A stretch of 64,000 nucleotides of DNA from Bacillota bacterium (GTDB taxonomy: Bacteria; Bacillota; Clostridia; Christensenellales; Aristaeellaceae), in contig JAEVYX010000017.1 in assembly GCA_023392515.1 (NCBI GenBank), positions 1,344-65,343 of the forward strand, written 5' to 3'. The translations under genes and the position numbers were made by a program. Of this stretch, positions 36,538-55,906 are shown one piece after another. The notes below the pieces were generated by a model. The model had not been told where the DNA came from, did not search any database, and was given only the letters and a program-made list of their open reading frames with translations. Position 1 is the first letter of the stretch, and each line of letters starts with the position of its first letter.

Positions 36538-37464
36538 ATGATTATAACGGTTACCTTGAATCCGGCGCTGGACAAAACAGTGACTCTTCCCATGTTTTCT
36601 GTTGGGCGAGTCAACCGGATCACGCAGATGCGCCTGGACCCTGGCGGAAAAGGTATAAATGTGTCAAAGGTCATCCAAAGTCTGGGAGGCCAAAGCGTGG
36701 CTATGGGGATTTTGGGCGGCGAAGCGGGTAAATGCATTAAAGAATCCCTGGATGCAATGGGGATAGTAAACGACTTTTTGTTCGTAGCGGAACCTACGCG
36801 TACCAATCTAAAAATAATCGATCCGGAACTGCACACCAATACGGATATCAATGAACCTGGCTCTCCGGTGGATGAACAAAAGGCGGAAAGCGTTTATGCG
36901 AGGCTGGAAGCAAGAGTGCAGTCTGGAGACGTTGTTGTTTTGGCTGGGAAAGCCCCTCCGGGTATACATGACGGTATTTTTGCTCAATGGACTGAACGGC
37001 TGCATAGGCTGGGTGCAAAAGTATATCTGGATGCGGACGGGCCTCTGCTTTTGCAAGGGGTTGCAGCCAAACCGGATTTGATCAAGCCTAATGAGGAAGA
37101 GTTTTCGCATTTGATGGGGAGAAGCCTTCGCTCGGTTGACGAAATTGCCTCGGCTGCACAAGAACTTCTGCACAGGGGTATTGGACAAATTGTTATATCT
37201 TTGGGTGCAAATGGCGCTTTGTTTGTTAAGCAAGGCCGAACAATTTATGCAAAGGGGCTTAAAGTGCCTGTCCAAAGTACAGTAGGAGCGGGGGACGCCA
37301 CCATGGCCGCATTGGTATTGGGCAGTGCCCGGGGCGATTCCTGGGAAAGCACCATACGACTGGCTATTGCGGCTGGAGCAGCCAGCGTGATGTGCGCCGG
37401 CACGGAGGCTGCCTCCTTGAAAACAGTGGTAGCGCTTATGAAGCAAGTAGAATTGGAAGGATAA
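36538..37464 (+). CDS. PfkB-family 1-phosphofructokinase/tagatose-6-phosphate-kinase-like enzyme
   Basis: The N-terminus MIITVTLNPALDKTV is typical of FruK/LacC. Motifs DPGGKGINVS and TVGAGDA are present. Confidence 0.8.
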   Translation: MIITVTLNPALDKTVTLPMFSVGRVNRITQMRLDPGGKGINVSKVIQSLGGQSVAMGILGGEAGKCIKESLDAMGIVNDFLFVAEPTRTNLKIIDPELHTNTDINEPGSPVDEQKAESVYARLEARVQSGDVVVLAGKAPPGIHDGIFAQWTERLHRLGAKVYLDADGPLLLQGVAAKPDLIKPNEEEFSHLMGRSLRSVDEIASAAQELLHRGIGQIVISLGANGALFVKQGRTIYAKGLKVPVQSTVGAGDATMAALVLGSARGDSWESTIRLAIAAGAASVMCAGTEAASLKTVVALMKQVELEG

Positions 37465-38958: not shown

Positions 38959-39723
38959 TCAATCCTCCGCGAAATGGAGCTTTGTGCGAAACTCGTTCCA
39001 GCATTCGTTTTCAAATACATTGGAACGGTTGGTAATGATGGAGGTTACCTCTGAGAGGGGGGCTACTTTGCAGAAGGCGGTGCGCCCAAACTTGCTGGAA
39101 TCTGCCAGAAGAACGACGGACTTGGCCTGGCGCATCATGGTTGATTTCAGATTGGCGACTTCCTCCCCTTGGTCGGTCAAGCCGTTTTTGCTATCCACGG
39201 ATTGAACGGAGAAAAGAAAGATATCTGCAAATTTCTTTGTAACGCAGCTTTCGGCAAATGGCCCGACCAACGAAGCCGTGTTGCGGTGATAAGTTCCGCC
39301 GGTACAAATGAGGGTACACTTGATTTGTTCGGCAACCAAAGTAGATGTTTGCAAACAGTTGGTGATAATTGTCAAATTTGCCTTATGGGCAAGAAAAGGG
39401 ATTAATTCCATCACGGTTGTGCTGGCATCCAGAAACAATACGTCATTATCCCGGACTAGGTCGGCAGCCTTTCTGGCGATACGTTTTTTTTCTGCATTAT
39501 GTTCCGCCGCTCTCACGGCCAGAGGTGTCTCAACGTTGGAACCTGAATTGCAGATGGCGCCGCCCCGAATTCTTCTGATCAATCCTTGCTGCTCCAATTC
39601 CTCCAGGTCCCGCCTAATGGTTGCCTCACTAAAAAAGAGCTGATCACGCAAGTGGATAACAGACAGAAAGGAATTGGTTTGAAACAGCTCCATGATCTTC
39701 TGCTGACGTTCGATGCCCAGCAT
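38959..39723 (-). CDS. DeoR-family transcriptional regulator
   Basis: ORF 38959-39768. ATG 39723 lies 7 nt after GGGAGGG. The HTH reads VIHLRDQLFFSEATIRRDLEELEQQG. The sensor motif is LFLDASTTVMELIPFL. Confidence 0.85.
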   Translation of the reverse strand: MLGIERQQKIMELFQTNSFLSVIHLRDQLFFSEATIRRDLEELEQQGLIRRIRGGAICNSGSNVETPLAVRAAEHNAEKKRIARKAADLVRDNDVLFLDASTTVMELIPFLAHKANLTIITNCLQTSTLVAEQIKCTLICTGGTYHRNTASLVGPFAESCVTKKFADIFLFSVQSVDSKNGLTDQGEEVANLKSTMMRQAKSVVLLADSSKFGRTAFCKVAPLSEVTSIITNRSNVFENECWNEFRTKLHFAED

Positions 39724-39868
39724 AGTTGTGCCCTCCCTGTAATTGAATCTTGAATAGCGCCTGCCCATTTACTGCTTATTCCGCATATGGATGGCGGCCA
39801 GGATTTTGGAACGAAGAAGCGGGAAAGGGAGATTTGCTGCATGGTTTTTGCACGAAGTATTGCACTAT

Positions 39869-40281: not shown

Positions 40282-41562
40282 ATGAAAAAATTGGTAGCAC
40301 TGACGTTGGCCCTCATACTCGCTATTGGCATGGTGCAGATCGCCTCAGCCGACGAGCCCACCGTAATTCAATTCTGGCACTCCTACGGTTCTGGTGCAAA
40401 CATGGAGGCAACTGACAAGGTTGTTGCTGGGTTTAATGAACTGTATAAAGGCAAGTACGAAGTGGTTGCCACCTTCCAGGGAAACTACGCCGAACTTCTG
40501 AGCAAGTTCATGGTTGCGTATCCCGCTAACGAAAACCCCACCATCTCCATCTGTGACGCTCCTGACTCCCAGCAGCTCATTACGTACAGCATGCTGGAGA
40601 ACATCACTGCCTTGGACGCAGCAGATGATGAGTTCGATGCCAACGATTTCTTGGATGGTTTTATGAACTATGGTACTGCTGCTGATGGCACCGTATACGC
40701 TCTGCCGTTTGCCCGCTCCACTCCCCTCATGTATGTGAACCTGGACTTGGTCAAGCAAGCTTATGGCGAAGCGATCGTTCCCAAGACCTGGGATGAATTC
40801 CTTGCTGTGGCGAAAGCTGTTCGCGATAACACCGACAAAGAAGCTTTCACTTGCGAAATTTCCAACTGGTTCTATGGAAACTTTGTAACCGCTCAGGGCT
40901 ATCAGTTCCTCACCGATGACGGCCAAGGCTCCATGCTGGCTGTTGACGATGCGGCTCTCAAGGCTTTGGAATGGTGGGGCATGCTCAAGGAAGAAGGCCT
41001 GTACGCCGTTCCCCCTCTCACCTCTCAGGGCACCTGGATGCTGGAAGAATTCTACAAGGGCAACATCGCTATCCTGTTCCAGTCCACTGGCAACGCCCGT
41101 AACGTAGCCAAGAACACCGAGGGCAAGTTTGAAGTGGCCGCTGGATTCCTGCCTGCCAAAGCCCGCAATGCTGTCAGCACCGGCGGCGGAAACATCGTAA
41201 TGTTCAACAACCGCAGCGAGGCCGAAAAAGAAGCCGGCTGGGCATTCCTGAAGTATGCTACCAATTTGGAGAATAACGCTGCTTTCAACGAGGGTACCGG
41301 CTACATGCTGACCCACAAGGATTCCGCCTCTCTGGAAAGCGTGCAGAAGCTGTGGGAAGAAGCCCCCATGTTCAAGGTTGCTTACGACCAGTTGCAGTAT
41401 GTATATGACTGCTACGTATCTCCCTACTGGGCCGAGCTGAATCTGGAGATCGTAAAAACGCTGCAGAGCTTCCTCCAGGATGGCACAATGAACGCGCAAC
41501 AGGCGTACGAAGAAATCCTCTTCTCCTGTGACACCATTCTGCCTAACGGAAACGTTAAGTAA
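40282..41562 (+). CDS. Family-1 extracellular solute-binding protein (sugar / glycerophosphodiester-type)
   Basis: MKKLVALTLALILAIGMVQIASA looks like a signal peptide. The RBS is AAGGAGG. It is 426 aa. Confidence 0.85.
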   Translation: MKKLVALTLALILAIGMVQIASADEPTVIQFWHSYGSGANMEATDKVVAGFNELYKGKYEVVATFQGNYAELLSKFMVAYPANENPTISICDAPDSQQLITYSMLENITALDAADDEFDANDFLDGFMNYGTAADGTVYALPFARSTPLMYVNLDLVKQAYGEAIVPKTWDEFLAVAKAVRDNTDKEAFTCEISNWFYGNFVTAQGYQFLTDDGQGSMLAVDDAALKALEWWGMLKEEGLYAVPPLTSQGTWMLEEFYKGNIAILFQSTGNARNVAKNTEGKFEVAAGFLPAKARNAVSTGGGNIVMFNNRSEAEKEAGWAFLKYATNLENNAAFNEGTGYMLTHKDSASLESVQKLWEEAPMFKVAYDQLQYVYDCYVSPYWAELNLEIVKTLQSFLQDGTMNAQQAYEEILFSCDTILPNGNVK

Positions 41563-41750: not shown

Positions 41751-42791
41751 ATGGCACAAATCGAATTTCGAAATGTCACCAAGAAATTCGGCGACCGGGC
41801 AATCATCGAAAACATGAACCTCACTATCAAGGATGGTTCTTTTACCGTTTTGATAGGCCCCTCTGGTTGCGGAAAAACAACGCTTTTACGCATGATAGCC
41901 GGTATTGGTCCACAAACGTCCGGGCAGGTTCTGCTGGATGGTGTGGATATTTCCCATACCCAGCCGGGTAAGCGCGGTGTTGCTATGGTTTTCCAGAATT
42001 ACGCGATATACCCTACCATGACCGTTCGTGAGAATATCGAATTCGGTCTTAAAAACAACAAGGTTCCTGAGAAGGAAAGAAAATCGCTGATTGACGAAAT
42101 CAGCCAGATTGTTGGCATTGCTGATTTGCTGGATCGTAAGCCGGGTACGTTGTCCGGCGGACAGCGTCAGCGCATCGCCTTAGCCAGAGCAATGGTAAAA
42201 AAACCCAAAGTATTCCTGATGGACGAACCGCTGTCCAACCTGGACGCAAAGCTGCGTGTTGCAATGCGCATCGAGCTGATTGAGCTGCACAAACAGTTGA
42301 AAACCACCTTCGTTTATGTAACACATGACCAGGTCGAAGCAATGTCCATGGCAGATAATATTATCCTGATGAATAAAGGTATCATTCAGCAGGAGGATGC
42401 GCCTCATGATATATATCACAACCCTCATAATATGTTTACCGCCCAATTCATCGGCTCTCCTCAAATGAACATATTGCCGGCAGAGACGGATGGGGTGTGT
42501 TTTGGCTTCCGGCCTGAGAAGGTCATTCTGTCCAATCTGGATTGCGGCGGCTTTTATTGCGGTGTGGGCCGTATCATCACCAAAGAAATGCTGGGCTCAG
42601 AAACGATTTATCAGATTCGATTCGAAGGCCGCTCCATCATGGTCAAGAGTTTGGATGAAACGTTTGAAGCAGATCGGGACATCAAGTTTTCCGTTCGTGA
42701 GGAAGACATTCTCTTTTTTGACAGGGACAAAAATCGAATTTTCCAAACAGATGGGCAGTATGCGATCCAACTGGCCAAACTGAGGAGGTAG
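41751..42791 (+). CDS. ABC transporter ATP-binding protein (MalK/UgpC/MsmX type)
   Basis: Walker A GPSGCGKTT, signature LSGGQRQRIALARA and Walker B VFLMDEPLSNLD, plus a C-terminal regulatory-type domain. Confidence 0.9.
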   Translation: MAQIEFRNVTKKFGDRAIIENMNLTIKDGSFTVLIGPSGCGKTTLLRMIAGIGPQTSGQVLLDGVDISHTQPGKRGVAMVFQNYAIYPTMTVRENIEFGLKNNKVPEKERKSLIDEISQIVGIADLLDRKPGTLSGGQRQRIALARAMVKKPKVFLMDEPLSNLDAKLRVAMRIELIELHKQLKTTFVYVTHDQVEAMSMADNIILMNKGIIQQEDAPHDIYHNPHNMFTAQFIGSPQMNILPAETDGVCFGFRPEKVILSNLDCGGFYCGVGRIITKEMLGSETIYQIRFEGRSIMVKSLDETFEADRDIKFSVREEDILFFDRDKNRIFQTDGQYAIQLAKLRR

Positions 42792-44576: not shown

Positions 44577-45425
44577 ATGACGCTAGTTTCAACAAAGAAA
44601 ATGTTGTTGGATGCACAGAGTGGCGGCTATGCCGTTGGAGCATTCAATGCAGAGAATATGGAGATGGCTCAGGCCATCATTAGTGCTGCGCAGGCTTTGA
44701 ATGCGCCGGTGATTGTACAAACAACGCCTTCCACCGTAAAGTACGGGGATTTGCGGCAATTCAGTGCCCTTATTCAAGCGATTGGCAGTGAAGTACAAAC
44801 GCCTGTTGCCATTCACCTGGATCATGGTGATTCTTATGAGCTGGCAGCCCGGGCCGTGCTGGCAGGGTACACCTCCGTAATGATTGACGGCTCAGCCAAG
44901 CCCTATGAAGAAAATGTGGCCATAACCCGAAAGGTTGTGGAAATAGCCTCGCTGGCAGGGGTTTCTGTGGAGGCGGAGCTTGGCAAGGTCGGGGGCAAGG
45001 AGGACGGTCTTTTCGTGGAAGATGAGGCTTATACCGATCCTGAGACTGCTGCTGATTTTGCAAAAAGAACAGCCGTAGATTCCCTCGCGGTGGCGATAGG
45101 AACCGCTCACGGCTTATATGCCAAGACGCCCAAACTTGATGTAATGCGTTTAAAAGAAATCCGCCGAAGAGTGGATATTCCCCTCGTTCTCCATGGTGCT
45201 TCGGGCCTTTCCGAGGACGATGTCCGCCGGTGCATTGGCGAGGGTATTTGCAAGGTGAATTTTGCTACAGAACTGCGAATCGCCTACAGCAATGCGGTTT
45301 CTCAAACATTCAGCCAAAAGCCGGATGTGTTCGACCCCAAGGTTTATGGGAAAGCAGCCAGAATTCAAGTACAGAAACTTGTAGAAAACTGGATTACAGT
45401 CCTCGGCTGTGCGGGAAGGGCATAG
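44577..45425 (+). CDS. Class II ketose-bisphosphate aldolase family (GatY/KbaY/Fba-like)
   Basis: ORF 44466-45425, but its 5' part overlaps the permease. ATG 44577 follows GGAAGAGGA. Motifs YAVGAFNAENMEMAQAII, AIHLDHG, VEAELG, AVAIGTAHG and LVLHGASG. Confidence 0.85.
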   Translation: MTLVSTKKMLLDAQSGGYAVGAFNAENMEMAQAIISAAQALNAPVIVQTTPSTVKYGDLRQFSALIQAIGSEVQTPVAIHLDHGDSYELAARAVLAGYTSVMIDGSAKPYEENVAITRKVVEIASLAGVSVEAELGKVGGKEDGLFVEDEAYTDPETAADFAKRTAVDSLAVAIGTAHGLYAKTPKLDVMRLKEIRRRVDIPLVLHGASGLSEDDVRRCIGEGICKVNFATELRIAYSNAVSQTFSQKPDVFDPKVYGKAARIQVQKLVENWITVLGCAGRA

Positions 45426-45457: not shown

Positions 45458-46957
45458 ATGAAAGAGTATTTGCTCGGAATTGATATTGGCTCCTCTGCAG
45501 TGAAACTGGCCCTGGCACGTACCGATGGGGAAACTGTGGCGAGCGCTTCGGGAAATTATCCCACCTATTATCCCCAAAGGGGATGGGCGGAGCAAAACCC
45601 CAATGACTGGTGGCAGGCAATTTGCCAGCAAATACGCTCACTTATTAAAAATGCGGGAATAGCGGCCAGGGATATCGGAGCCATTGGCGTGGACGGATAC
45701 AGTTGGGCAGCGGTGGCCTTGGGAAAAAAAGGCCAGGTGCTATGCAATACGCCTCTTTGGTATGATATACGGGCTGCAGAAGAGTGCACGTTTATAAGGG
45801 AGCAGCTGGGAGAAGAGCAGGTTTTTGATTTGTGCGGAAACCCTGTTCATCCCAACTATACCCTGCCCAAAGTATTGTGGTATAAAAATCATTTGGCAAA
45901 GGTAGTTCCAGGCATCCACACGATTCTGCAAACCAACGGTTTTATTGTCTACCGCTTGACGGGGGAGCTGACCCAGGACGTGTCCCAGGCATATGGGTAT
46001 CACTGTTTTGATATCCGGCGGGGAACGTGGAACTTAGGCATGCTGGAAAAGCTGGGCATTGATCCCCAATGGCTCCCCGAGATTTCTTCCTGCAGCCAAG
46101 TGGTGGGAACGGTTACGGCTGCGGCTGCCCGGGAGACGGGGCTGCATCCTGGAACGCTTGTTGTGGCTGGGGGGCTGGATGCTGCCTGCGGCACATTAGG
46201 TGCGGGCGTTCTCCACCGGGGTCAGACCCAAGAGCAAGGCGGGCAAGCTGGCGGTGTGAGCATTTGCACAGATGATTGCATACCGGTTAAAAACATGATT
46301 CTCAGCAACCATGTAGTGCCCGGCCGATGGCTTGTGCAGGGAGGCACGGTGGGCGGCGGCGGGATTATGCGCTGGCTTGCCGGTATCCTGAAGGCACAGG
46401 AAAGTGCGGACAGCGCTGAATACTTCGCACAGATGGATCAATGGGCCGGGCAGGTGCCCGCAGGTGCCGAAGGGCTTTTATTTTTGCCCTATATGGCCGG
46501 CGAACGGTCACCCATCTGGGATGAAAATGCCAAGGGTGTTTTCTTTGGGCTGGATTATGCTAAAAATCGCGGACATATCATCCGTGCCGCAATGGAAGGG
46601 GCTGCTTTTGCGCTTAAGCACAATTTAGAAGCAGCAGGGTCGGCAGCCGACAACGTTCAGGAAATGAGGTCAGTTGGCGGTGCGTCCAAAAGCAGCATAT
46701 GGATGCAGATAAAAGCCGATATCACCGGCATACCCATCCGCCCGGCAGGGGGCGATTTGGCTACCGCCCGAGGGGCGCTAATCCTGGCAGGCGTTGGAAC
46801 CGGGATGCTTCCCGGCTTTGAAAAGGCATGTGAGCAGTTTGTGCAGTTGGGGCCTGTATATGTCCCGGATGGAGCACAAAAGGCACGCTATGATGTGAAC
46901 TATGATCGGTATTTACGGCTTTATACACAGCTGAAAGAATTAATGAAAGGGTGTTGA
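45458..46957 (+). CDS. FGGY-family carbohydrate kinase (xylulokinase-like)
   Basis: ORF 45230-46957. ATG 45458 lies 11 nt after GGGAGG. Motifs LLGIDIGSSAVK, GWAEQNPNDWW and VGGASKSSIWMQIKADITG. Confidence 0.85.
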   Translation: MKEYLLGIDIGSSAVKLALARTDGETVASASGNYPTYYPQRGWAEQNPNDWWQAICQQIRSLIKNAGIAARDIGAIGVDGYSWAAVALGKKGQVLCNTPLWYDIRAAEECTFIREQLGEEQVFDLCGNPVHPNYTLPKVLWYKNHLAKVVPGIHTILQTNGFIVYRLTGELTQDVSQAYGYHCFDIRRGTWNLGMLEKLGIDPQWLPEISSCSQVVGTVTAAAARETGLHPGTLVVAGGLDAACGTLGAGVLHRGQTQEQGGQAGGVSICTDDCIPVKNMILSNHVVPGRWLVQGGTVGGGGIMRWLAGILKAQESADSAEYFAQMDQWAGQVPAGAEGLLFLPYMAGERSPIWDENAKGVFFGLDYAKNRGHIIRAAMEGAAFALKHNLEAAGSAADNVQEMRSVGGASKSSIWMQIKADITGIPIRPAGGDLATARGALILAGVGTGMLPGFEKACEQFVQLGPVYVPDGAQKARYDVNYDRYLRLYTQLKELMKGC

Positions 46958-46977: not shown

Positions 46978-48024
46978 ATGAAGGCGGCTGTTTTGCATGG
47001 ACAAGGGGATATACGTTACGAAGACTACCCTATGCCCCAGTTGAAAGCAGGTCATATATTGATAAAAGTGCGGGCGGCGGGCATCTGTGGATCTGATATT
47101 CCACGGGTGCTTGGTACGGCCGCTCATTTTTTTCCCATTGTACTTGGTCATGAATTCTCCGGAGAAGTGATGGAAGCAGGAGAAGGTGTTACCCAGTTTC
47201 AGGTGGGCGATCGGGTGGTAGCGGCACCTCTCGTTCCCTGTGGTGTTTGCAATGATTGCCAGGAGGGCTCCTATGCCCTTTGCAAACATTATACCTTTAT
47301 TGGCTCCCGGCAGCAGGGCGGATTTGCGGAATATGTGGTAATACCGGCGGCAAATGCAGTCAAGTTTTCTTCCGACTATTCATTTTCACAGGCTGCCTTG
47401 TTTGAGCCGGCAGGCGTCGCGCTGCATGGCTTAATTCAAAACAGTTATCTGGGCGGCGGTACTGTGGCCATTCTGGGTGCAGGTACCATTGGCGTATTTA
47501 CTGGACAGTGGGCGCAAATTTTCGGCGCTGAAAAAGTGGTCTTCTTCGATGTGGATGAGGAGCGGCTGAAAATTGCCACTGAAATCACGGGAGGTAAAGG
47601 GATTAACCTAAGCCTTTCCAATGGACGTGAGGAGGCTATGAAAGTTACCAACGGAAAGGGCTTTTCATACGTATTTGGCACTTCCGGCGCTTCGGAAACC
47701 ATCAACATGGCCTTTTCTATTGCGGCTAACAAGGCCAAAATCTGTTTTATTGGAACGCCAACCGGCCCCGTTTCCTTTACGGCGGAAGAATGGGAACTGA
47801 TGAACCGGCATGAATTTACCGTAACAGGCTCTTGGATGAGCTATTCCGCACCTTTTCCCGGCAGGGAATGGACCCTTACCGCTGAAATGATGGGCCAGGG
47901 AAGATTGAAATTCGATGAGCGGTTTATTTACAAAAAGTTTTCTCTGGCGCAATGTGCTGAGGCGTTTGCATCCTTTCAGCATCCCGGGCAGGTAAAGGGA
48001 AAAATTCTTCTGGTCAATGAATAA
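46978..48024 (+). CDS. Galactitol-1-phosphate-5-dehydrogenase-like (GatD-type) zinc dehydrogenase
   Basis: GICGSDIPRVLGTAAHFFPIVLGHEFSG, CGVCNDCQEGSYALC and FIGSRQQGGFAEYVV align with my recollection of E. coli GatD (GLCGSDLPRIF..GAHYYPITLGHEFSG; FIGSRRDGGFAEYIV). The start could instead be TTG 46960. Confidence 0.7.
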   Translation: MKAAVLHGQGDIRYEDYPMPQLKAGHILIKVRAAGICGSDIPRVLGTAAHFFPIVLGHEFSGEVMEAGEGVTQFQVGDRVVAAPLVPCGVCNDCQEGSYALCKHYTFIGSRQQGGFAEYVVIPAANAVKFSSDYSFSQAALFEPAGVALHGLIQNSYLGGGTVAILGAGTIGVFTGQWAQIFGAEKVVFFDVDEERLKIATEITGGKGINLSLSNGREEAMKVTNGKGFSYVFGTSGASETINMAFSIAANKAKICFIGTPTGPVSFTAEEWELMNRHEFTVTGSWMSYSAPFPGREWTLTAEMMGQGRLKFDERFIYKKFSLAQCAEAFASFQHPGQVKGKILLVNE

Positions 48025-48043: not shown

Positions 48044-48057
48044 AGTATGAGGATCTT

Positions 48058-48990
48058 ATGATAGCGACAATTACGCTGAATGCATCCATCGACAGGCGTT
48101 ATGTGGTGGAAAGCACTCAATGGGGCGTTGTTCACCGTGTTAAGAGCTGTACCAGCACGGCAGGCGGCAAAGGGCTCAATGTTGCAAGAATCATCCATGC
48201 CTTGGATGAAAAAGTGATAGCAGGTGGATTTGCGGGTGGTTTCTCAGGGGCCTTTCTGCTTAAAATGCTTGCCCAGGAAGGGGTTCCTGAGGCCTTTGTG
48301 AAAGTACAGGGCGAAACGCGCTCCTGCATTAATGTACACGATCTTACGACAGGCGTCCAAACGGAATTCCTGGAGCCGGGAACAGCTGTTTTGCCTGGGG
48401 AATATAATGAATTTTTGGCTGTATACCGGGAGCTTTTAAAGGAATGCCGGGTGGTCAGCCTGTCAGGCAGCCTGCCCGGAGGGCTGGATGTTGCAGCGTA
48501 CGGTAATCTAATTCGCATTGCAAAAGAGAGCGGTGCCAAGGTGCTTTTGGACACAAGCGGCCCGGCTCTCATGGCGGCTTTGCCTTTTGGGCCTTCAGTC
48601 ATCAAGCCGAATGAAGAGGAAATCAGGCAGCTTGCCGGTGAGAACACACAATCTTTGCAGGCACTGGCTTATGAGGCGCAAAAATTGCACCGGCAGGGTA
48701 TTGAGCGGGTGGTTGTCTCCCTGGGCGCAAGGGGTGCGCTTCTGGCCTGTGAGCAAGGTGTGTACCATGGAAAGCCACCACAAATTCAACCTTTGAATAC
48801 CGTTGGATGCGGTGATGCCATGACAGCCTCCTTTGCGGTGAGCTTTTCCCGGGGGGACGATTCCCGGGAGGCGTTGCGCCAGGCAATTGCCGTTTCAGCG
48901 GCCAGCGCCCTTTCGCTAGATACAGGCGGGCTTGACAAAAACGAGTATGAAAAGATATTGCCGTTGGTCCGGCTAGAAAAGTTGCTGTGA
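48058..48990 (+). CDS. PfkB-family ketose-phosphate kinase (tagatose-6-P / fructose-1-P kinase-like)
   Basis: Motifs MIATITLNASIDRRY, TAGGKGLNVA and TVGCGDA. Confidence 0.8.
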   Translation: MIATITLNASIDRRYVVESTQWGVVHRVKSCTSTAGGKGLNVARIIHALDEKVIAGGFAGGFSGAFLLKMLAQEGVPEAFVKVQGETRSCINVHDLTTGVQTEFLEPGTAVLPGEYNEFLAVYRELLKECRVVSLSGSLPGGLDVAAYGNLIRIAKESGAKVLLDTSGPALMAALPFGPSVIKPNEEEIRQLAGENTQSLQALAYEAQKLHRQGIERVVVSLGARGALLACEQGVYHGKPPQIQPLNTVGCGDAMTASFAVSFSRGDDSREALRQAIAVSAASALSLDTGGLDKNEYEKILPLVRLEKLL

Positions 48991-49032
48991 CCGAGCCTGA
49001 AAATGATGCTATAATAGTAAGAGGGATTGAAA

Positions 49033-50328
49033 ATGAGTCAGCATTTGATTGTTATCTCGGAGGATGCCTTGGTTTACGAGGACCTGGAAACGCTGAAGAC
49101 GCTGCCTAACTTCTCAAAAGTATGGGAAAAGACGGCTCGGGTAAACAGGACGCGTTCCGTATATCCCAGTCTGACGTATCCATGTCATACAAGCATGCGG
49201 ACTGGAATGTATCCCAATCGCCATGGGATTATCAATAATGAAAAAAGCACGCTTTGTGAGAAAAGCTCCCCATGGGTACTGTTTAATGATGCGGTAAAGG
49301 TGCCTGATGTGTTTGATGCGGCAAAGAAAAAGGGGCTTACCACAGCCGCTGTATTCTGGCCGGTGACAGGAAACCATGCCTCCATTGACTACCTGGTAAA
49401 CGAATATTGGCCCCAAAGCCCTGAGGAGACTACACGGGACTGTTTTGCAAACTCCGGAAGTTCCCCTGAAGTGATGGAAAAAGTTGTGGATAAGAACTTG
49501 CATATGCTGATCAACAGGGTACATCCCTATTGCGATGCATTTATTCATGCTTGTGCCTGCTCCATTATCAGGGAATTCAAACCGAACCTGCTGATGATCC
49601 ATCCTGCCAATGTGGATGATTATCGCCACAAATCCGGGCTTTTCTCCACATTGGTAACCCATGGACTCCACGAGATTGATCTGTGGCTGGGGGACATTAT
49701 CAAAGCTGCGCAGGATGCGGGCATCTATGAGGATACGGACTTTGTTATTACCAGCGACCATGGACAGCTGAATATCATTAGAACCATTTCCCCCAATGTG
49801 GTTTTTGCCGATCATGGGCTGATCCAGGTTGATTCAAATGGAGACATTGCGGATTTTACCGCCTTTTGCAAATCCACCGCACTTTCAGCCCAGGTATATT
49901 TAAAAAACCCCAACGATAAAGCTGCTTATGACAAGACGTTGCAATTGCTTACCCATATGTGCGAAGAGGGAATTTACGGCATAAACCGCGTCTATACTGC
50001 CGAAGAGGCCGAACAAGAGGAGCATTTGGCCGGAGATTTTTCCTTTGTCATTGAAAGCGATGGCTATTCGTCTTTTACAAACAATTGGGTACGCCCGATT
50101 GTGCGCAATAAAGATATCACGGATTACCGCTTTGGACATGCCACCCATGGCCATCATCCGGATAAAGGACCCCAGCCCACTATGGTGGCCTTTGGCCCCC
50201 GGTTCCGTGCCGGTGCTGTGGTGGAAAGAAGACCACTAGTAGACGAAGCAGCCACCTTCGCCCGTGTGCTGGGTTTGGAAATGGGCGATATTGACGGTAA
50301 AGCCATTGAAGAAATCCTGAATGTGTAA
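49033..50328 (+). CDS. Alkaline-phosphatase-superfamily type I phosphodiesterase/nucleotide pyrophosphatase (NPP)-like enzyme, cytoplasmic
   Basis: YPSLTYPCHTSMRTGMYPNRHGIINN parallels the NPP nucleophile-Thr segment (FPTKTFPNHYS..TG..P..HGI..N). SDHGQ and HGHH metal-ligand-like motifs are present. No signal peptide. Confidence 0.7.
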   Translation: MSQHLIVISEDALVYEDLETLKTLPNFSKVWEKTARVNRTRSVYPSLTYPCHTSMRTGMYPNRHGIINNEKSTLCEKSSPWVLFNDAVKVPDVFDAAKKKGLTTAAVFWPVTGNHASIDYLVNEYWPQSPEETTRDCFANSGSSPEVMEKVVDKNLHMLINRVHPYCDAFIHACACSIIREFKPNLLMIHPANVDDYRHKSGLFSTLVTHGLHEIDLWLGDIIKAAQDAGIYEDTDFVITSDHGQLNIIRTISPNVVFADHGLIQVDSNGDIADFTAFCKSTALSAQVYLKNPNDKAAYDKTLQLLTHMCEEGIYGINRVYTAEEAEQEEHLAGDFSFVIESDGYSSFTNNWVRPIVRNKDITDYRFGHATHGHHPDKGPQPTMVAFGPRFRAGAVVERRPLVDEAATFARVLGLEMGDIDGKAIEEILNV

Positions 50329-50372
50329 CGGTTAAGCAAAGCTTTTGTGCGATTTCAAAGGAGTGAGAACCC

Positions 50373-51191
50373 ATGCTGTATCAGGAAATGCAGCTTCATG
50401 TGCCAGGACAGCAGGAGACAGCCGCATTAATTTCCTACATCCCTTCCAACAGCCCGGAAATTGAGCAGGATCGCCGCCGTCCGGCAGTGATTGTATGTCC
50501 AGGGGGTGGATATCACTTTTTGTCTGACCGGGAGGCAGAGCCCATCGCCATCCGGTTGAATGCCTTGGGGCTGAACGTCTTCATTTTGCGCTATAGTGTG
50601 TCACCCGCCCGCTACCCCGTGCCTCAAAGGCAGCTGGCCATGGCGGTGCATTTGGTGCGCAGCCAAGCGGCGGAATTTGCGACTGATCCCAATAAAATCT
50701 TTGTAGCCGGCTTTTCTGCCGGCGGGCATTTGGCTGCCAGCCTGGGTATACTTTGGAAGGATGCTGCATGCTTTGCGGAATTGGGTCTTTCCCCGGAAGC
50801 AATTCGTCCCAACGGAATGATTTTGAGCTATCCTGTCATCACTTCGGGAGAATTCGCCCATCGCAACTCTTTCCTTTGTCTGCTGGGAGAAAAGCATGAT
50901 GCCTTAAAGGATCAGGTCTCCCTGGAAAAGCGGGTAACGGATGATGCCGTACCTGCGTTTATATGGCATACCTACGAGGATGAGCTGGTACCGGTAGAAA
51001 ACAGCTTGCTGCTGGCTATGGCACTGCGGGCCCACCTTGTTCCTATGGAACTGCACATTTATCCCTTTGGGCGGCACGGCCTTTCCCTCTCCAATAATCA
51101 GGTATACGGGCCTGATGCAAAAACCGCCATACGGCCCGAGTGCAAAGACTGGATTGATATGGCGGCTCGGTGGATATTTTCCTTTGAGTAA
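50373..51191 (+). CDS. Alpha/beta-hydrolase-fold esterase (Aes/BD-FAE-like)
   Basis: The oxyanion region is VIVCPGGGY and the nucleophile elbow is GFSAGGHLA. Late D/H residues (YEDELVP; GRHGLS) are present. Confidence 0.75.
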   Translation: MLYQEMQLHVPGQQETAALISYIPSNSPEIEQDRRRPAVIVCPGGGYHFLSDREAEPIAIRLNALGLNVFILRYSVSPARYPVPQRQLAMAVHLVRSQAAEFATDPNKIFVAGFSAGGHLAASLGILWKDAACFAELGLSPEAIRPNGMILSYPVITSGEFAHRNSFLCLLGEKHDALKDQVSLEKRVTDDAVPAFIWHTYEDELVPVENSLLLAMALRAHLVPMELHIYPFGRHGLSLSNNQVYGPDAKTAIRPECKDWIDMAARWIFSFE

Positions 51192-51245
51192 ATGTTTCAC
51201 GTATAAAATAGGATAATATAAAAAGCAGCTATTAAGGAGCTATGT

Positions 51246-52625
51246 ATGGTGGATTTTTCAAAACTGTCTTTGGAGGAGCTTATACAAAGGGATGGTTTTG
51301 ATTGTGACTGCGGCTGTCATCACCAGGTAAAGGTTCAGCATGTAAAAATCGGAGCCGATGCGGCAGCCAGCCTGCCAGGTGTGCTGGCGAGCCTTAATGT
51401 CATTAGACCTTTTGTGGTTTGTGATCAGAATACGGCAGCAGTCGCTTGGCCCAAGGTGAAAGCGCTGCTGGAAAAGGCGCAAATCCCCTATCAGCTTTTT
51501 GTTTTTCCGCAGCAGCGTGTGGAGCCGGATGAGGCCGCGATAGGCGCGCTTGCCATGGCTTTTGACCCGGAATGTGATGTGATTTTAGGCGTTGGCTCCG
51601 GTGTTATCAATGATTGCTGCAAGGTTTTGGCTAAAGTGAGCGCAAGACCATTTCTCATCGTCGCCACTGCACCTTCCATGGACGGATACGCATCTGACTC
51701 TGCCTCCATGATTCAAAACCGCGTGAAGGTTTCGCTGGGAACGCCTTGCCCTCTAGCAGTCATCGCGGATACGGATATTGTTGCGAATGCCCCGATGCGC
51801 ATGCTGCAGGCGGGCCTTGGTGACATGATGGCTAAATATACTGCATTGTGCGAATGGCGGATCGCACATTTGGTGATCGGAGAATATTACTGCCCGCATG
51901 TAGCTGAATTGGTCCGTTGTTCTCTTAAAAAGTGCGTCAATCATGCGGAAAAGCTGGTTCTCAGAGACCCGGATGCGGTGGAAGCGGTCATGGAAGGGCT
52001 CATTATAACCGGTATTGCGATGAGCTTTGCAAAATGCTCCAGACCTGCCTCCGGACTGGAACATTATTTTTCACATATGTGGGAAATGATGGCGCTGGAT
52101 AAAAACATTCCAGCCGATCTGCACGGTATTCAGGTGGGGGTTGGTACGCATCTCACATTGATGATATTTGACAGCTTAGCCAATGAAATGCCCGATTGGG
52201 CACAGGCACAAAAACATCTGTCTAACTTTGATGAAGCAGCATGGGAGCAAGAAATGCGGGAGATTTTCGGCAAAGCATCCAATGCCGTAATTCAAGGCGA
52301 AAGAAATAAATTCCACAAAAATGACCTGGGAGAATTGGCCCGGCGGATCCATTTCATTCAACTTCATTGGGAGGAAATCCTGACGGTAGTAAAGCAGGAA
52401 CTTCCTGCATCCAAGGATTTGCTGGCCTTGATGCGGCGCCTGGGCATGCCTGCATGGCCCCAGGAACTGGGGCTGAGCCCGCAGGATGTCAAACAGGCGT
52501 TGATAGGATCCCGGGATATCCGTGATAAGTATCTGGTCAGCTCTCTCTTGTGGGATTTAGGCAAGCTGCACGATTACGCGAATATGCTTGCAGCCTCCGG
52601 AAAAGGTGGCGATTCCAAGCAGTAA
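51246..52625 (+). CDS. sn-Glycerol-1-phosphate dehydrogenase-like (AraM/EgsA family, DHQS-like fold)
   Basis: GVGSGVINDCCK, TAPSMDGYAS, NAPMRMLQAGLGDMMAKYTALCEWRI and SRPASGLEHYFSHMWEM align with my recollection of B. subtilis AraM (AVGSGTIHD; TAPSVDGFTS; AAGFGDMLGKITSLADWEI; SRPASGGEHHISHWIEM). Confidence 0.65.
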   Translation: MVDFSKLSLEELIQRDGFDCDCGCHHQVKVQHVKIGADAAASLPGVLASLNVIRPFVVCDQNTAAVAWPKVKALLEKAQIPYQLFVFPQQRVEPDEAAIGALAMAFDPECDVILGVGSGVINDCCKVLAKVSARPFLIVATAPSMDGYASDSASMIQNRVKVSLGTPCPLAVIADTDIVANAPMRMLQAGLGDMMAKYTALCEWRIAHLVIGEYYCPHVAELVRCSLKKCVNHAEKLVLRDPDAVEAVMEGLIITGIAMSFAKCSRPASGLEHYFSHMWEMMALDKNIPADLHGIQVGVGTHLTLMIFDSLANEMPDWAQAQKHLSNFDEAAWEQEMREIFGKASNAVIQGERNKFHKNDLGELARRIHFIQLHWEEILTVVKQELPASKDLLALMRRLGMPAWPQELGLSPQDVKQALIGSRDIRDKYLVSSLLWDLGKLHDYANMLAASGKGGDSKQ

Positions 52626-52696: not shown

Positions 52697-53719
52697 ATGA
52701 AGCAAGCACTGATGGTATGCCCCGGAGAAATCATTTTTCAAGACGTACCTGTGCCTATGGTGGGCGACAACCAGATCAAGGTGCAAATGAAGCGTATCGG
52801 GGTTTGCGGATCTGATATCCATGTATATCACGGCAAACATCCCTACACCAGTTATCCGGTTGTCCAGGGGCACGAAGTGTCTGCCGTGGTTGTGGAGATT
52901 GGGAAAGATGTGAAAAACGTCCGCGTGGGTGATGCGGTAACGATTCAGCCCCAGGTAGTGTGCGGCACCTGTTATCCCTGTACCCATGGCATGTATAACG
53001 ACTGCGAAATGTTGAAAGTTATGGGCTTTCAAACTACCGGCATGGCCAGCGAATACTTTGTGACTGAAGCCGACAAAGCGCTAAAACTGCCGGAGGGCAT
53101 GGACTTGGACCATGGCGCCATGATTGAGCCATTAGCAGTAGCGGTTCATGCAGTGCGCAGGGCTGGAGACTTGGCAGGAAAAAAAGTGCTGGTGTTAGGC
53201 GGCGGCCCCATTGGCAACCTGGTGGCACAAACAGCCAGGGCCTTGGGTGCATCTCAAGTTCTGTTAAGCGAGGTAAGCGCATACCGGCTAAAAACGGCGG
53301 AGGATTGTGGTCTTTTGACCATAAACCCCAAGGAAAGGGATCTTCGGGAAGGCATCAGGGAGTATTTTGGAAGTGATGGAGCAGATGTCATCTTTGAATG
53401 CATTGGCAGCAGTGCAACGGTAGATCAAGCCATTGCCTGTGCCCGCAAGGGAAGCGACATTATCATCGTAGGTGTTGTTGCCTCAGCCGGCCCCGTCAAT
53501 ATGGGCTTTGTGCAGGATCACGAGCTGCGACTGATTGGCTCTGCCATGTATCGGGTAGAAGATTATATCGAGGCAATTGATCTTGTTAATGCAGGCAAGA
53601 TTGCCTTTGAGGCATTAATCACCCATCGTGTAAAATTCAGCGATTATCTCTCTGCTTACAAGATTATTGAAGAAGCAAAAGATAAGGCAATGAAAGTAAT
53701 GATTACTTTCGACGAGTGA
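52697..53719 (+). CDS. Zinc-dependent polyol dehydrogenase (sorbitol/L-iditol dehydrogenase-like)
   Basis: ORF 52550-53719, whose 5' part overlaps the previous gene. ATG 52691/52697 follows GAGGAG. Motifs CGSDIHVYHG, GHEVSAVVVEIG, CGTCYPCTHGMYNDC and VLGGGPIGN. Confidence 0.85.
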   Translation: MKQALMVCPGEIIFQDVPVPMVGDNQIKVQMKRIGVCGSDIHVYHGKHPYTSYPVVQGHEVSAVVVEIGKDVKNVRVGDAVTIQPQVVCGTCYPCTHGMYNDCEMLKVMGFQTTGMASEYFVTEADKALKLPEGMDLDHGAMIEPLAVAVHAVRRAGDLAGKKVLVLGGGPIGNLVAQTARALGASQVLLSEVSAYRLKTAEDCGLLTINPKERDLREGIREYFGSDGADVIFECIGSSATVDQAIACARKGSDIIIVGVVASAGPVNMGFVQDHELRLIGSAMYRVEDYIEAIDLVNAGKIAFEALITHRVKFSDYLSAYKIIEEAKDKAMKVMITFDE

Positions 53720-53852: not shown

Positions 53853-54764
53853 ATGAAAATCAAGATCATTCCCCTGCTTTTATGCTCGGTGATGCTTTTA
53901 AGCTTTTCTCCCTCTGCGCTATTAGAGAGCACGCACAATAATGAAGGCATCATGACCTTCCGGTTTTTTGATGTTCCTGAAATAGTAACAAAGATTGGAG
54001 ACTGCAGCTTTATACAATTCCCCAATGGAGAGACCATGCTGATTGACGCGTTTATTGCCAATGCTGCGCCTTATGTTGTAGAGGATTTGAAGGCGCTGGG
54101 GGTAACGCGAATTGATTACCTGGTGGTCAGTCATTATCATGGAGACCATATAGGCGGTATGCCAGCGTTTATGGACAATTTTGAAATTGGCGGTGTCTAC
54201 ACCAGCGGGCTGCACGTTTACACTACCTCGGGGCTGAACTTGCTTAGCAAGATGGAGGAGATGGGCCTTGAGGAACATATCCTTCGGCAGGGAGACGTCC
54301 TTCAGGTTGGAGATGTGGATATTCAAATTCTGAATCCTGACGTAACTGATGAAGTTATGGCTGCCTTTGAAAGCGGGGAAGTCCCTTCCGACGCAGCGGT
54401 AAATGTGCAGTCGTTGGTAATGAAGTTTATCTATAAGGATTTTACCGCCTTATTTACCGGGGACGTATACGACAAAGCCGAGCGGTGGCTGATGGACAAA
54501 TATGGCGATGAGCTGCATGTGATGCTATTCAAAGCCCCCCATCACGGCTCCTATACGTCATCCGGTGCCCGCTTTCTTCGTACAATCAATCCCCAATATG
54601 TAGTAGCCATTGGCAATGTAGGCGTTGTCGGCGGCAAGAACAAATACATGCGGATAGGTGCCGAGGCTGTCTACTATACGTATATGGATGGCACAGTAGT
54701 TGCCACGACGGACGGAAAAACAGTTACATTCGAGGCAAACAAGGAAGCAAAACAGCAGCCATAA
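53853..54764 (+). CDS. Secreted metallo-beta-lactamase-fold hydrolase (ComEC-type MBL domain)
   Basis: MKIKIIPLLLCSVMLLSFSPSAL looks like a signal peptide. Motifs VVSHYHGDHIGG and KAPHHGS. Confidence 0.7.
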   Translation: MKIKIIPLLLCSVMLLSFSPSALLESTHNNEGIMTFRFFDVPEIVTKIGDCSFIQFPNGETMLIDAFIANAAPYVVEDLKALGVTRIDYLVVSHYHGDHIGGMPAFMDNFEIGGVYTSGLHVYTTSGLNLLSKMEEMGLEEHILRQGDVLQVGDVDIQILNPDVTDEVMAAFESGEVPSDAAVNVQSLVMKFIYKDFTALFTGDVYDKAERWLMDKYGDELHVMLFKAPHHGSYTSSGARFLRTINPQYVVAIGNVGVVGGKNKYMRIGAEAVYYTYMDGTVVATTDGKTVTFEANKEAKQQP

Positions 54765-54886: not shown

Positions 54887-55906
54887 ATGAGAAGTGCAGT
54901 ATTTTACGGGAAGCATGATTTGCGGGTGGAAGAATCACCAAAACCAACCATTACGGAGGAGCAGGTGCTCATTCGGGTAAAAGCATGCGGCGTGTGCGGT
55001 ACGGATGTTCATATCTATGAGGGGGATAAGGGCGCGGCTGCTTGCACGCCTCCCACGATATTGGGCCATGAATTTTCAGGCATTGTTGAGGAAATAGGCA
55101 GCAAGGTAATTGGAATCAAGGTGGGTGATCGCGTCAGCGTTGACCCGAATCAGACCTGCGGGCGTTGCTATTACTGCAGAAATGGGTTGGCCCATTATTG
55201 CCAGCACATGACCGGCTACGGCACAACTGCCAATGGGGCCTTCGCGGAATATTGCGCCGTTCATTTTCAGCAGGTCTATCTATTGGGTGATAACACTACC
55301 TTCGAACAAGGTGCAATGACCGAACCCGTGGCTTGCTGCCTGCATGGAATAGATATGTGTGAAATCACGCCGGGAAGCGTGATTGCTGTCATTGGCGGTG
55401 GCATGATTGGGCTAATTATGCTGCAGCTGGCCAAACTATCCGGGGCGCACCAAACCATTCTTTTGGAGCCGGTGGCAGGGAAGCGTGCCATGGGAGCAAA
55501 GCTGGGCGCTGATCTGGTAATTGATCCCCTGAATGAGGATGTGCAGGAAGTTTTAAAAGCCAATGGCATCCACAGAATCAACACGGTGATTGAATGTGCC
55601 GGCCTACCCTCCACCATCAAAATGGCTATTGATATCGCAGGGAATAAATCGGTGGTCATGATGTTTGGGCTGACAAAGCCCGATGAGGAAGTAGCCATTA
55701 AACCCTTCCAGATTTTCCAAAAGGAAATTGTGCTGAAAGCAAGCTTTATCAACCCCTATACGCAGCAGCGGGCGCTTGATTTGATCAACTCTGGCCGGTT
55801 GGATGTATCTTCGATGGTGTATAGTGTTTGTTCCTTAAAGGATTTGGAAAATGTTCTATCAAACCCGGAATGGCGGGCCAAGGGGAAATACATCATTCAG
55901 CCGTAA
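54887..55906 (+). CDS. Zinc-dependent dehydrogenase (threonine/sorbitol dehydrogenase-like)
   Basis: ORF 54839-55906. ATG 54887 follows AAAGGAGG. Motifs CGVCGTDVHIYEG, GHEFSGIVEEIG, CGRCYYCRNGLAHYC and VIGGGMIG. Confidence 0.85.
   Translation: MRSAVFYGKHDLRVEESPKPTITEEQVLIRVKACGVCGTDVHIYEGDKGAAACTPPTILGHEFSGIVEEIGSKVIGIKVGDRVSVDPNQTCGRCYYCRNGLAHYCQHMTGYGTTANGAFAEYCAVHFQQVYLLGDNTTFEQGAMTEPVACCLHGIDMCEITPGSVIAVIGGGMIGLIMLQLAKLSGAHQTILLEPVAGKRAMGAKLGADLVIDPLNEDVQEVLKANGIHRINTVIECAGLPSTIKMAIDIAGNKSVVMMFGLTKPDEEVAIKPFQIFQKEIVLKASFINPYTQQRALDLINSGRLDVSSMVYSVCSLKDLENVLSNPEWRAKGKYIIQP

Follow-up and report, generated by a model that had tools for sequence, protein, structure and literature searches.

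The stretch of DNA analyzed here (64,000 nucleotides of contig JAEVYX010000017.1 from a Bacillota bacterium of the family Aristaeellaceae, hereafter the window) carries on its + strand three consecutive genes encoding a phosphodiesterase of the alkaline phosphatase superfamily and the nucleotide pyrophosphatase/phosphodiesterase (NPP) type (49033..50328), an alpha/beta-hydrolase carboxylesterase (50373..51191) and an NAD(P)-dependent dehydrogenase (51246..52625) resembling the glycerol-1-phosphate dehydrogenases (G1PDHs) AraM and EgsA. Coordinates are positions in the window, and L- and P-numbers designate homologous loci and homologous proteins, respectively. In an original prediction the three genes had been proposed, speculatively, as a salvage module for diesters of sn-glycerol-1-phosphate (G1P) or alditol phosphates, appended to a polyol operon. 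Their arrangement as a same-strand run was borne out, with gaps of 42, 44 and 54 nt separating the preceding PfkB gene (which ends at 48990) from the NPP gene, the latter from the esterase gene and this from the AraM-like gene, and the order is repeated in other loci. They continue a series that runs unbroken on the + strand from position 40282 onward and comprises the solute-binding protein (SBP), ATPase and permeases of an ATP-binding cassette (ABC) transporter, an aldolase, an FGGY kinase, a GatD-like dehydrogenase, the PfkB kinase and the three genes. We consider it somewhat probable that these form the distal cytoplasmic arm of a DeoR-controlled operon for import and degradation of a polyol-phosphate diester, which would extend over about 40282-55906 and have a companion unit (DeoR, 1-phosphofructokinase and a 421-aa dehydrogenase, MDR421) at 35535-38737. 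The cargo would be a glycerophosphodiester-like compound or an alditol-phosphate diester of the teichoic-acid type.

With the ATG at 49033 as its start, the first of the three genes codes for a protein of 431 aa; this start is shared by database proteins and by the gene calls on identical contigs; an alternative TTG start at 49027, two codons upstream of that ATG, is also listed. The protein matched Pfam PF01663 with 144.8 bits (cut-off 23) over residues 7-356. Its threonine nucleophile segment, SVYPSLTYPCHTSMRTGMYPNRHGIINNE (LTYPCHT), aligns with KTFPNH of ENPP3 and also with the nucleophile of ENPP5, and the threonine in question, T48, is invariant among 19 homologues (61-91% identity), as are D11, N69, D195, H199, D242, H243 and H372; these residues were assigned to the ligands of the Xanthomonas enzyme (Xac NPP) by motif, not by superposition. 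Foldseek searches with an AlphaFold2 (AF2) model (pLDDT 88) returned Xac NPP (E 4e-23), ENPP5, ENPP1/3, ENPP7 and ENPP6, with TM-scores of 0.65-0.77 (TMt 0.75-0.77 for ENPP5, ENPP7 and ENPP6) and 17-20% identity. No N-terminal signal or membrane segment is present, the first beta-strand starting at residue 4 of the model, so the protein departs from the extracytoplasmic location typical of characterized NPPs. N-terminal segments of this kind occur in distant relatives (P0283, P0319, P0335 and P0352), and the window protein therefore represents a cytoplasmic offshoot of a family in which exported members are found as well. The proposal of an NPP-like phosphodiesterase with a threonine nucleophile and no signal peptide was thus confirmed by the PF01663 match, the invariant catalytic set and the fold. 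Fold, nucleophile and two-metal site are shared with Xac NPP and with mammalian ENPP1-7, from which the window enzyme differs in its cytoplasmic location, its low identity, the lack of SMB or nuclease-like domains and its linkage to an ABC importer. To our knowledge, characterized NPPs are extracellular enzymes acting on nucleotides or lipid head groups. ENPP6, a choline-specific glycerophosphodiesterase, shows that the family can cleave glycerophosphodiesters.

Gene fusions within the family bear on the reaction catalyzed. A SASA acetylesterase is fused to NPP in P0248, and P0287 and P0324 combine NPP with HAD phosphatases (HAD_2-NPP and NPP-Cof-type HAD), which suggests a sequence of esterase, diesterase and monoesterase. 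Because separate HAD phosphatases adjoin NPP or are fused to it, NPP is probably not itself the monoesterase. An assignment as a PafA-type monoesterase was rejected on the same grounds and by the score (25 bits for PafA, against 650), and one as phosphonoacetate hydrolase (PhnA) was discarded as no PhnA structure was found among the PDB matches. The fusions among P0242, P0248, P0255, P0287 and P0324 also include a GNAT acetyltransferase and a CoaE-like P-loop kinase.

The second gene encodes a cytoplasmic carboxylesterase of the BD-FAE/lp_1002 kind, which scored 61.9 bits against Pfam BD-FAE (cut-off 26.8) and also matched Abhydrolase_3. Its serine motif, GFSAG, agrees with the GxSxG esterase that had been expected here. 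The best PDB match was 6a6o (E 3e-54), followed by 3bjr, and the protein is closest to cytoplasmic aryl- and acetyl-esterases, although it stays below the equivalog cut-off for the NCBIfam lp_1002 arylesterase (181 bits against 300). A D-alanyl esterase activity is conjectural.

The third gene product (459 aa) contains an Fe-ADH_2 domain and had been likened to AraM, a likeness borne out by profile and structural comparison. Among NCBIfam models it scored best with the G1PDH equivalog NF002022 (209.3 bits against a cut-off of 413; GldA, 70 bits), and its best PDB sequence match is 9h4x, the AraM of B. subtilis (E 4e-49). A family profile search returned AraM at 1e-57, the G1PDH of M. jannaschii at 2e-39, that of P. 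calidifontis at 1e-35 and GldA at ~1e-13, the four top PDB matches all being G1PDHs (E 1e-57 to 1e-36). AraM was also the best Foldseek match of the AF2 model (pLDDT 92), with TMt 0.85, rmsd 3.1 Å and 28% identity. D193, H273/H277 and H293, which we take as the three metal ligands, are invariant in the family together with S265-R266-P267-A268-S269-G270, and all of them align with AraM and with the M. jannaschii and P. calidifontis enzymes. The G1PDH motifs TAPSxDG, GDMxxK, SRPASGxEH and LHG are kept, SRPASGxEHxxSH being common to all solved G1PDHs, and the SRPxSG segment may bind the phosphate. The clostridial G1PDH-like family (~448 aa) has in addition a C-terminal helical extension and an invariant C20-x-C22-G-x-x-H26 motif (CxCGxHH in the window), which could constitute an extra metal site; nothing in AraM or the archaeal G1PDHs aligns with this motif, their alignments beginning after it. 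The protein is therefore AraM-like, short of being assignable to the G1PDH equivalog.

The genomic neighborhood of NPP was compared in 80 loci fetched from species-representative genomes, by tblastn and clustering of all open reading frames. These loci come from metagenome-assembled genomes labeled Christensenellales/Limiplasma, Oscillospiraceae, Blautia, Fusicatenibacter and other animal-gut Clostridia, and partners were counted in the 47 that are flanked by at least 5 kb on each side. Genes for the same ABC importer adjoin NPP in 29 of the 47 (ATPase 59-84% identical, a range found in 32 NPP loci), and this synteny spans Christensenellales, Oscillospiraceae and Lachnospiraceae. Less frequent partners are a PfkB kinase (17/47), an atypical dehydrogenase of ~420 aa from the medium-chain dehydrogenase/reductase (MDR) family and an FGGY kinase (14/47 each), a GpsA-like NAD(P)-dependent sn-glycerol-3-phosphate (G3P) dehydrogenase (11/47), a G1PDH-like gene (8/47, plus two with a 32% identical paralogue), a HAD phosphatase (8/47), a glycerophosphodiesterase of the GDPD family (7/47), a class II aldolase (6/47), a GDSL esterase (5/47) and a BD-FAE esterase (1/47). 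An action of NPP on the cargo of the importer is suggested most strongly by bare DeoR-ABC-NPP loci (L028, L036, L039, L043 of Fusicatenibacter faecihominis CLA-AA-H277, L067 and L076), which have unrelated genes downstream; along with the adjacency to ABC genes, they make this the most likely function. The NPP-ABC pairing is solid and uncharacterized, in contrast to the link with G1P, which is attractive yet indirect.

As to the nature of that cargo, GDPD genes are present in L002, L004, L005, L037, L038, L047 and L086, accompanied by a GpsA-like gene in five of these seven loci; the two follow the permeases directly in L002, L004 and L005, and a GpsA-like gene follows PfkB in L064 and L072. 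These genes, and more weakly the UgpB-like SBP, point to a glycerophosphodiester-like cargo. HAD phosphatase genes lie beside NPP in L002, L003, L005, L008, L011, L013 and L047 and, in Blautia, in L022, L025 and L033. In L030, L037 and L038, NPP paralogues stand side by side in tandem, with 63-64% and 53-57% identity to the window NPP; those of L037 and L038 adjoin an orthologue of the first DeoR-type regulator of the window (DeoR1), and in these two loci the other strand carries the GDPD and GpsA-like genes.

The complete order NPP-esterase-G1PDH-like was found in eight loci and with two esterase folds: BD-FAE in the window, in L001 (from the closest genome, 76-91% identity) and in L083, and GDSL in L006, L009, L023, L029 and L094. 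A BD-FAE gene beside NPP is restricted to those three cases, L001 being the only one among the 80 genome loci and L083 a metagenome contig; GDSL esterase genes occur also in L011 and L013. With the SASA-NPP fusion, the esterase step recurs in NPP loci with three different folds, and the placing of a non-homologous esterase at the same position indicates a functional need for it. The arrangement is not due to chance, but it is a minority one and not an obligate unit: a G1PDH-like gene is missing from 39 of the 47 well-flanked NPP loci and, conversely, NPP lies beside only two of 80 G1PDH-like loci, so that the three genes do not make up a conserved unit. The broader idea of diester catabolism is favored by the ABC synteny and the GDPD and GpsA-like partners, whereas that of a dedicated, conserved triad is weakened by its small number of loci and its exchanged esterases.

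The 80 G1PDH-like loci just mentioned were sampled from metagenomes, for a family with >7,800 matches in a protein database clustered at 90% identity. Besides the two with NPP (none among the 18 loci having at least 5 kb on both sides), a few more have a Ugp-like ABC, GDPD or HAD gene, the commonest neighbor is an FGGY kinase (6-7 loci) and a divergent DeoR gene is present in six. Clustering of the neighbors in these 80 loci revealed no conserved partner, only scattered FGGY, DeoR, GDPD and ABC genes, and no GGGPS/PcrB was noticed among the annotated neighbors, the genome itself not having been surveyed for it. In L164, a Christensenellaceae contig, the G1PDH-like gene overlaps an FGGY kinase gene and stands beside a GlpA-type G3P dehydrogenase cluster; this context and the DeoR subfamily shared with the window connect the family with the metabolism of glycerol phosphate. 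In B. subtilis, araL-araM-araNPQ are part of the arabinose operon. A HAD(-IIB) phosphatase gene followed by a G1PDH-like gene was seen in L005, L011, L105, L131 and L144, with a CUT1 ABC transporter alongside, an order that mirrors the B. subtilis one. P0191 (eukprot m51a1_g6371), a protein of 458 aa from a eukaryotic database, shares 56% identity with the clostridial G1PDH-like protein, which could reflect contamination or else horizontal acquisition by an anaerobic protist.

The proximal part of the operon provides the transporter. The CUT1-type, Ugp-like SBP (40282..41562, + strand) has UgpB as its best NCBIfam model (89 bits, cut-off 411) and UgpB proteins as its best PDB matches (9lff, 4aq4, 4mfi and 6r1b, E 1e-19 to 1e-15). 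It is followed on the same strand by a UgpC/MalK-like ATPase (41751..42791; Pfam ABC_tran in the gene calls) and two permeases (42796-43683 and 43718-44545; BPD_transp_1), kept beside NPP in related loci. A second DeoR-type regulator (DeoR2, 38959..39768, - strand; Pfam HTH_DeoR and DeoRC) is transcribed divergently from the SBP gene and shares its subfamily with the divergently transcribed regulators of other ABC-NPP loci and of stand-alone G1PDH-like genes. Downstream of the permeases, and on the + strand as well, are a GatY-like class II ketose-bisphosphate aldolase (44577..45425; PF01116, 344 bits), a XylB-like FGGY sugar/polyol kinase (45458..46957; FGGY_N/C domains, TIGR01312 358 bits against a cut-off of 380), a Zn-dependent dehydrogenase similar to galactitol-1-phosphate 5-dehydrogenase (46978..48024; best NCBIfam model NF007642, GatD) and the PfkB hexose-phosphate kinase (48058..48990), similar to 1-phosphofructokinase and tagatose-6-phosphate kinase (TIGR03168 316 bits, cut-off 216; TIGR03828 292.0 bits, equal to the cut-off). 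The equivalog level of the Gat pathway was missed by GatD (278 bits against 550), by the NCBIfam GatY subfamily (375 against 383) and by LacC (235 against 469).

The companion unit upstream, also on the + strand, consists of DeoR1 (35535..36332; GlpR/AgaR-like in NCBIfam), a PfkB-family 1-phosphofructokinase (1-PFK, 36538..37464; TIGR03828 327 bits, cut-off 292) and MDR421 (37472..38737), an atypical Zn-dependent polyol dehydrogenase of 421 aa whose best PDB matches are the sorbitol dehydrogenases 3qe3/1pl6 and the ketose reductase 1e3j; as read from the sequence by analogy with sorbitol dehydrogenase, C39/H68/E69 would be its catalytic-Zn ligands. Orthologues of DeoR1 (58-87% identity) are co-directional with PfkB, MDR421 or NPP genes in 12 related loci, and in L002-L005, L011 and L074 a unit of this type is directly followed by NPP. 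The MDR421 family has >8,000 matches, with 73-80% identity across orders (Clostridia, Erysipelotrichia). In the comparison loci used for it (L166, L167 and L168), MDR421 appears in Merdibacter with 1-PFK, DeoR and a mannitol-type IICBA of the phosphotransferase system (PTS; 715 bits against 589), no MtlD being seen in the locus shown, and in Caproiciproducens with 1-PFK and an ABC system having a PhnS2-like SBP of the 2-aminoethylphosphonate type. The simplest reading of 1-PFK and MDR421 is conversion of hexitol-1-phosphate to fructose-1-phosphate and then to fructose bisphosphate (FBP), and the unit may define an undescribed route of this kind from mannitol- or hexitol-1-phosphate. The GatD-like, PfkB and GatY-like proteins read, by their families, as a path from hexitol phosphate through ketohexose phosphate and bisphosphate to trioses. 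No PTS genes that could form the hexitol phosphate were found in the gene calls of the window; it could be supplied by NPP cleavage of a hexitol-phosphate diester or by FGGY-dependent phosphorylation of a released hexitol. Since the strongest recurrent partners of NPP are enzymes of hexitol-phosphate metabolism (1-PFK with MDR, and Gat-like), the alcohol or phosphate moiety of the cargo is at least as likely to be a hexitol as glycerol.

These elements can be assembled into a putative pathway. The Ugp-like importer would take up the diester, from which the esterase would remove the acyl group if it were O-acylated. The NPP-type enzyme, occupying on a different fold the place of UgpQ, would then attack the phosphorus with Thr48 and its two-metal site; one alcohol would leave, and hydrolysis of the covalent intermediate would free a polyol phosphate, although which P-O bond is cut is conjecture. 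A hexitol phosphate would be oxidized by the GatD-like enzyme or MDR421, phosphorylated by PfkB and split by the GatY-like aldolase, while the FGGY kinase would phosphorylate the free alcohol. Finally, the AraM-like dehydrogenase would oxidize glycerol phosphate, presumably the sn-1 enantiomer, to dihydroxyacetone phosphate (DHAP).

Several observations weigh against this pathway. No ABC gene neighbors NPP in 18 of the 47 well-flanked loci, the window itself has no GDPD, GpsA-like or HAD gene according to gene calls and Pfam, the SBP is far below the UgpB cut-off, characterized NPPs are only 17-20% identical to the window enzyme, and the G1PDH-like genes are mostly unlinked to NPP and below their equivalog cut-off. 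In terms of redox potentials, NAD-linked oxidation of glycerol phosphate is uphill, which means that the dehydrogenase could run reductively instead. A CUT1 transporter can also carry free hexitols, as described in Haloarcula (PMC11519228).

Independently of how the operon as a whole is read, the third gene may encode not a G1PDH but a paralogue with some other small polyol, polyol phosphate or aldehyde as its substrate, which we regard as possible though rather unlikely. In its favor are the score at about half of the NF002022 cut-off (209 against 413 bits) and the invariant N-terminal Cys/His motif and ~140 extra C-terminal residues, absent from AraM and EgsA. A precedent exists in the halophile homologue VNG_6270G, annotated as G1PDH, which is a glycolaldehyde reductase with no activity on G1P or DHAP (PMC9700705). 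The frequency of FGGY kinases as neighbors (6-7/80, and L164) would also fit a pair converting polyol to ketose and ketose phosphate. However, the four best PDB sequence matches are G1PDHs and glycerol dehydrogenases come far behind at 1e-13, the TM-score to AraM is 0.85, identity to AraM is 28-33% compared with 22.5% for the misannotated halophile enzyme, the presumed metal ligands and SRPASG are conserved, and the L164 gene stands beside the GlpA-type G3P dehydrogenase cluster.

The narrower form of the original prediction, in which the three genes would be devoted to salvage of sn-G1P diesters, with fragments of lipoteichoic acid, the head group of phosphatidylglycerol or archaeal lipid head groups as substrates, is doubtful. 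The esterase would strip D-alanyl or other acyl esters, NPP would free sn-G1P and the AraM-like enzyme would convert it to DHAP. The structural match and shared motifs of the third protein agree with this, as does the recurrence of the gene order with two esterase folds. The main G1PDH-like type (10 NPP loci) never occurs with GDPD or with GpsA-like genes (11 loci), and GDPD is accompanied by a GpsA-like gene in five of its seven loci, which would fit separate G3P and G1P arms; nevertheless, the zero overlap between G1PDH-like and GpsA-like genes is not significant, about 1.4 loci being expected by chance with such small numbers, and mutual exclusion of the two, though suggestive, was accordingly rejected as a finding. 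Four type-A loci (L064, L072, L077 and L078) even combine NPP with a GpsA-like gene and no GDPD. The rarity of the G1PDH-like gene at NPP loci and of NPP at G1PDH-like loci, its score below the equivalog level, the dominance of hexitol-phosphate genes in the neighborhood and the esterases, which belong to carbohydrate acetyl- and aryl-esterase families and not to known D-alanyl esterases, also speak against it. On the other side, GlpQ-type enzymes are sn-3 specific and lipoteichoic acid is an sn-1 polymer (PMC7086022), and the earlier statement that no catabolic route for G1P has been described agrees with our literature searches, which returned none. Specificity for sn-G1P and a teichoic-acid source are conjectural features of the pathway.

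It appears improbable that the operon serves the uptake of free galactitol, sorbitol or mannitol through the CUT1 transporter, with catabolism by the MDR, FGGY, PfkB and aldolase enzymes, the three genes being accessory. In that case they might provide, for instance, a redox valve from DHAP and NAD(P)H through glycerol-1-phosphate to glycerol, with the alkaline-phosphatase-superfamily protein as a monoesterase. AraM as characterized by Guldan and colleagues in 2008 reportedly runs in the DHAP-reducing direction, which along with the thermodynamics would fit such a valve, and an electron sink would be useful because hexitols are more reduced than hexoses. A CUT1 ABC transporter with polyol dehydrogenase, kinase, 1-PFK and aldolase is an established route (PMC11519228), the window encodes five MDR dehydrogenases and two aldo-keto reductases, and the HAD phosphatase-G1PDH-like pairs resemble araL-araM. 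Yet the minimal DeoR-ABC-NPP loci contain no polyol enzymes, which implies that NPP acts on the cargo itself, the HAD phosphatases beside or fused to NPP indicate that it is not a monoesterase, the GDPD genes of related operons point to diesters, and the nearest relatives of the SBP are UgpB proteins. Finally, a housekeeping nucleotide pyrophosphatase/phosphodiesterase located in the operon by chance, for which the closest solved structures (the nucleotide-hydrolyzing Xac NPP, ENPP1, ENPP3 and ENPP5) might speak and which would have undone the original prediction, is effectively excluded by the importer synteny in 29/47 loci across Christensenellales, Oscillospiraceae and Lachnospiraceae, the fusions with esterase and HAD phosphatases and the 17-20% identity to nucleotide NPPs.

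Returning to the import and degradation of a polyol-phosphate diester, the locus resembles in its presumed operation a Ugp/UgpQ system joined to a hexitol-phosphate pathway of the Gat type, both of which it misses at the equivalog level. As in the Ugp system of E. coli and M. tuberculosis (UgpBAEC and UgpQ), an SBP with UgpB proteins as its nearest, if weak, relatives, two permeases and a MalK/UgpC-like ATPase are encoded in one operon, with a cytoplasmic phosphodiesterase gene beside the transporter, a DeoR/GlpR-type regulator and, in related loci, GDPD and G3P dehydrogenase. Unlike in Ugp, the diesterase has the NPP/alkaline-phosphatase fold instead of the GDPD TIM barrel, no GDPD-type UgpQ is present in the window, the SBP is below the UgpB equivalog cut-off, and the operon adds hexitol-phosphate genes, an esterase and the AraM-like dehydrogenase. 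The third protein finds its closest counterparts, in sequence as in structure, in AraM and archaeal EgsA, with which it has the presumed metal ligands and the G1PDH motifs in common, and some relatives show the araL-araM-araNPQ-like order HAD phosphatase, G1PDH-like and CUT1 ABC (L005, L011 and L131); on the other hand, it is ~60 residues longer, has the invariant N-terminal Cys/His motif, falls below the NCBIfam cut-off, and its gene is located in a catabolic operon context, not one of lipid biosynthesis. The agrocinopine (acc) operon of Agrobacterium, for catabolism of a plant-tumor opine, is also comparable in its DeoR-type repressor, ABC importer for a sugar phosphodiester, cytoplasmic phosphodiesterase and phosphatase, and differs in that AccF is GDPD-like, the transporter is of another family and the substrate is that opine. 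Similarity to the Gat/tagatose-6-phosphate pathway and to mannitol/sorbitol utilization in Haloarcula (PMC11519228) lies in the GatD-like, PfkB and GatY-like proteins and in 1-PFK with polyol dehydrogenase and CUT1, respectively, but the window has no PTS, and NPP is located where the phosphorylated intermediate would need to be made.

In the literature that we searched, neither the pairing of a cytoplasmic NPP with a Ugp-like importer nor a catabolic route for G1P nor teichoic-acid utilization by gut bacteria was described. Much carbon and phosphorus is present in the gut as phosphodiesters derived from membranes and cell-wall polymers. The bacterial salvage enzymes that we know of (GDPD family, GlpQ/UgpQ) are specific for diesters of sn-glycerol-3-phosphate, and sources of the sn-1 enantiomer include lipoteichoic acid, the phosphatidylglycerol head group, the by-product of Lgt and archaeal lipids. 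We propose only tentatively, and think it unlikely on present data, that gut Clostridia catabolize sn-G1P-type or alditol-phosphate diesters beyond the reach of GlpQ/UgpQ, through Ugp-like import, de-O-acylation, cleavage by the cytoplasmic NPP-fold enzyme and conversion of G1P to DHAP by a widespread AraM-like dehydrogenase; candidate substrates are fragments of lipoteichoic acid, the head group of phosphatidylglycerol and possibly head groups of archaeal lipids. If true, bacteria would for the first time be described as drawing carbon and phosphorus from G1P, and the large clostridial 'G1PDH' family, with its thousands of annotated proteins, would gain a physiological role. Even without G1P, the NPP-ABC pairing represents an uncharacterized nutrient-acquisition system common in Christensenellales, Oscillospiraceae and Lachnospiraceae, and it offers as leads a second, non-homologous cytoplasmic diesterase tied to Ugp-like importers and a link between phosphodiester salvage and hexitol-phosphate metabolism.

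With respect to expression, an Rfam scan of the whole window revealed no riboswitch and no other RNA family, and a promoter and terminator scan of 38700-58600 gave counts at chance level and no terminator between genes; the latter is compatible with a single operon, yet uninformative. A strong 14-bp stem-loop with 8 G-C pairs is present just past the SBP gene (41585-41615), scored on the - strand and with no clean T-tract there, in a position typical for an intra-operon stabilizer or attenuator raising SBP expression. The element ATGRTTGAAAATGA appears twice around the DeoR2 gene (38901-38914 and 39891-39904), with one copy in the DeoR/SBP promoter region. Because the pattern was derived from those same two copies, the statistic for its enrichment is circular, so it was not accepted as an operator and is a candidate only.

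Beyond the AraM-like gene the + strand continues with a further Zn-dependent polyol-type dehydrogenase (52697..53719; ADH_N/ADH_zinc_N, Tdh/IolM/YdjJ-like), a secreted hydrolase of the metallo-beta-lactamase (MBL) fold (53853..54764) and a third Zn-dependent dehydrogenase (54887..55906, from the gene call), of which L001, L004, L011 and L013 have copies with 47-89% identity. The N-terminus of the MBL-fold protein, MKIKIIPLLLCSVMLLSF, resembles a signal peptide, and its PDB matches are the MBL/nuclease domain of ComEC and CbpE/Pce, a teichoic-acid phosphorylcholine esterase of pneumococci; NPP is followed by a homologue in L011 and by an MBL gene in L020. It is possibly an extracellular phosphodiesterase that generates importable fragments. 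Downstream of these genes, and in the same orientation, are two adjacent aldo-keto reductase genes (56271-58494), followed by a MerR regulator; both reductases have C-terminal 4Fe-4S ferredoxin-like Cys motifs. On the upstream side, 26293-35429 is a separate sugar-utilization region with a CUT1 SBP, a ROK-family regulator similar to NagC/Mlc, a ROK kinase (33533-34474) and a gene similar to class I mannose-6-phosphate isomerase (34416-35429).

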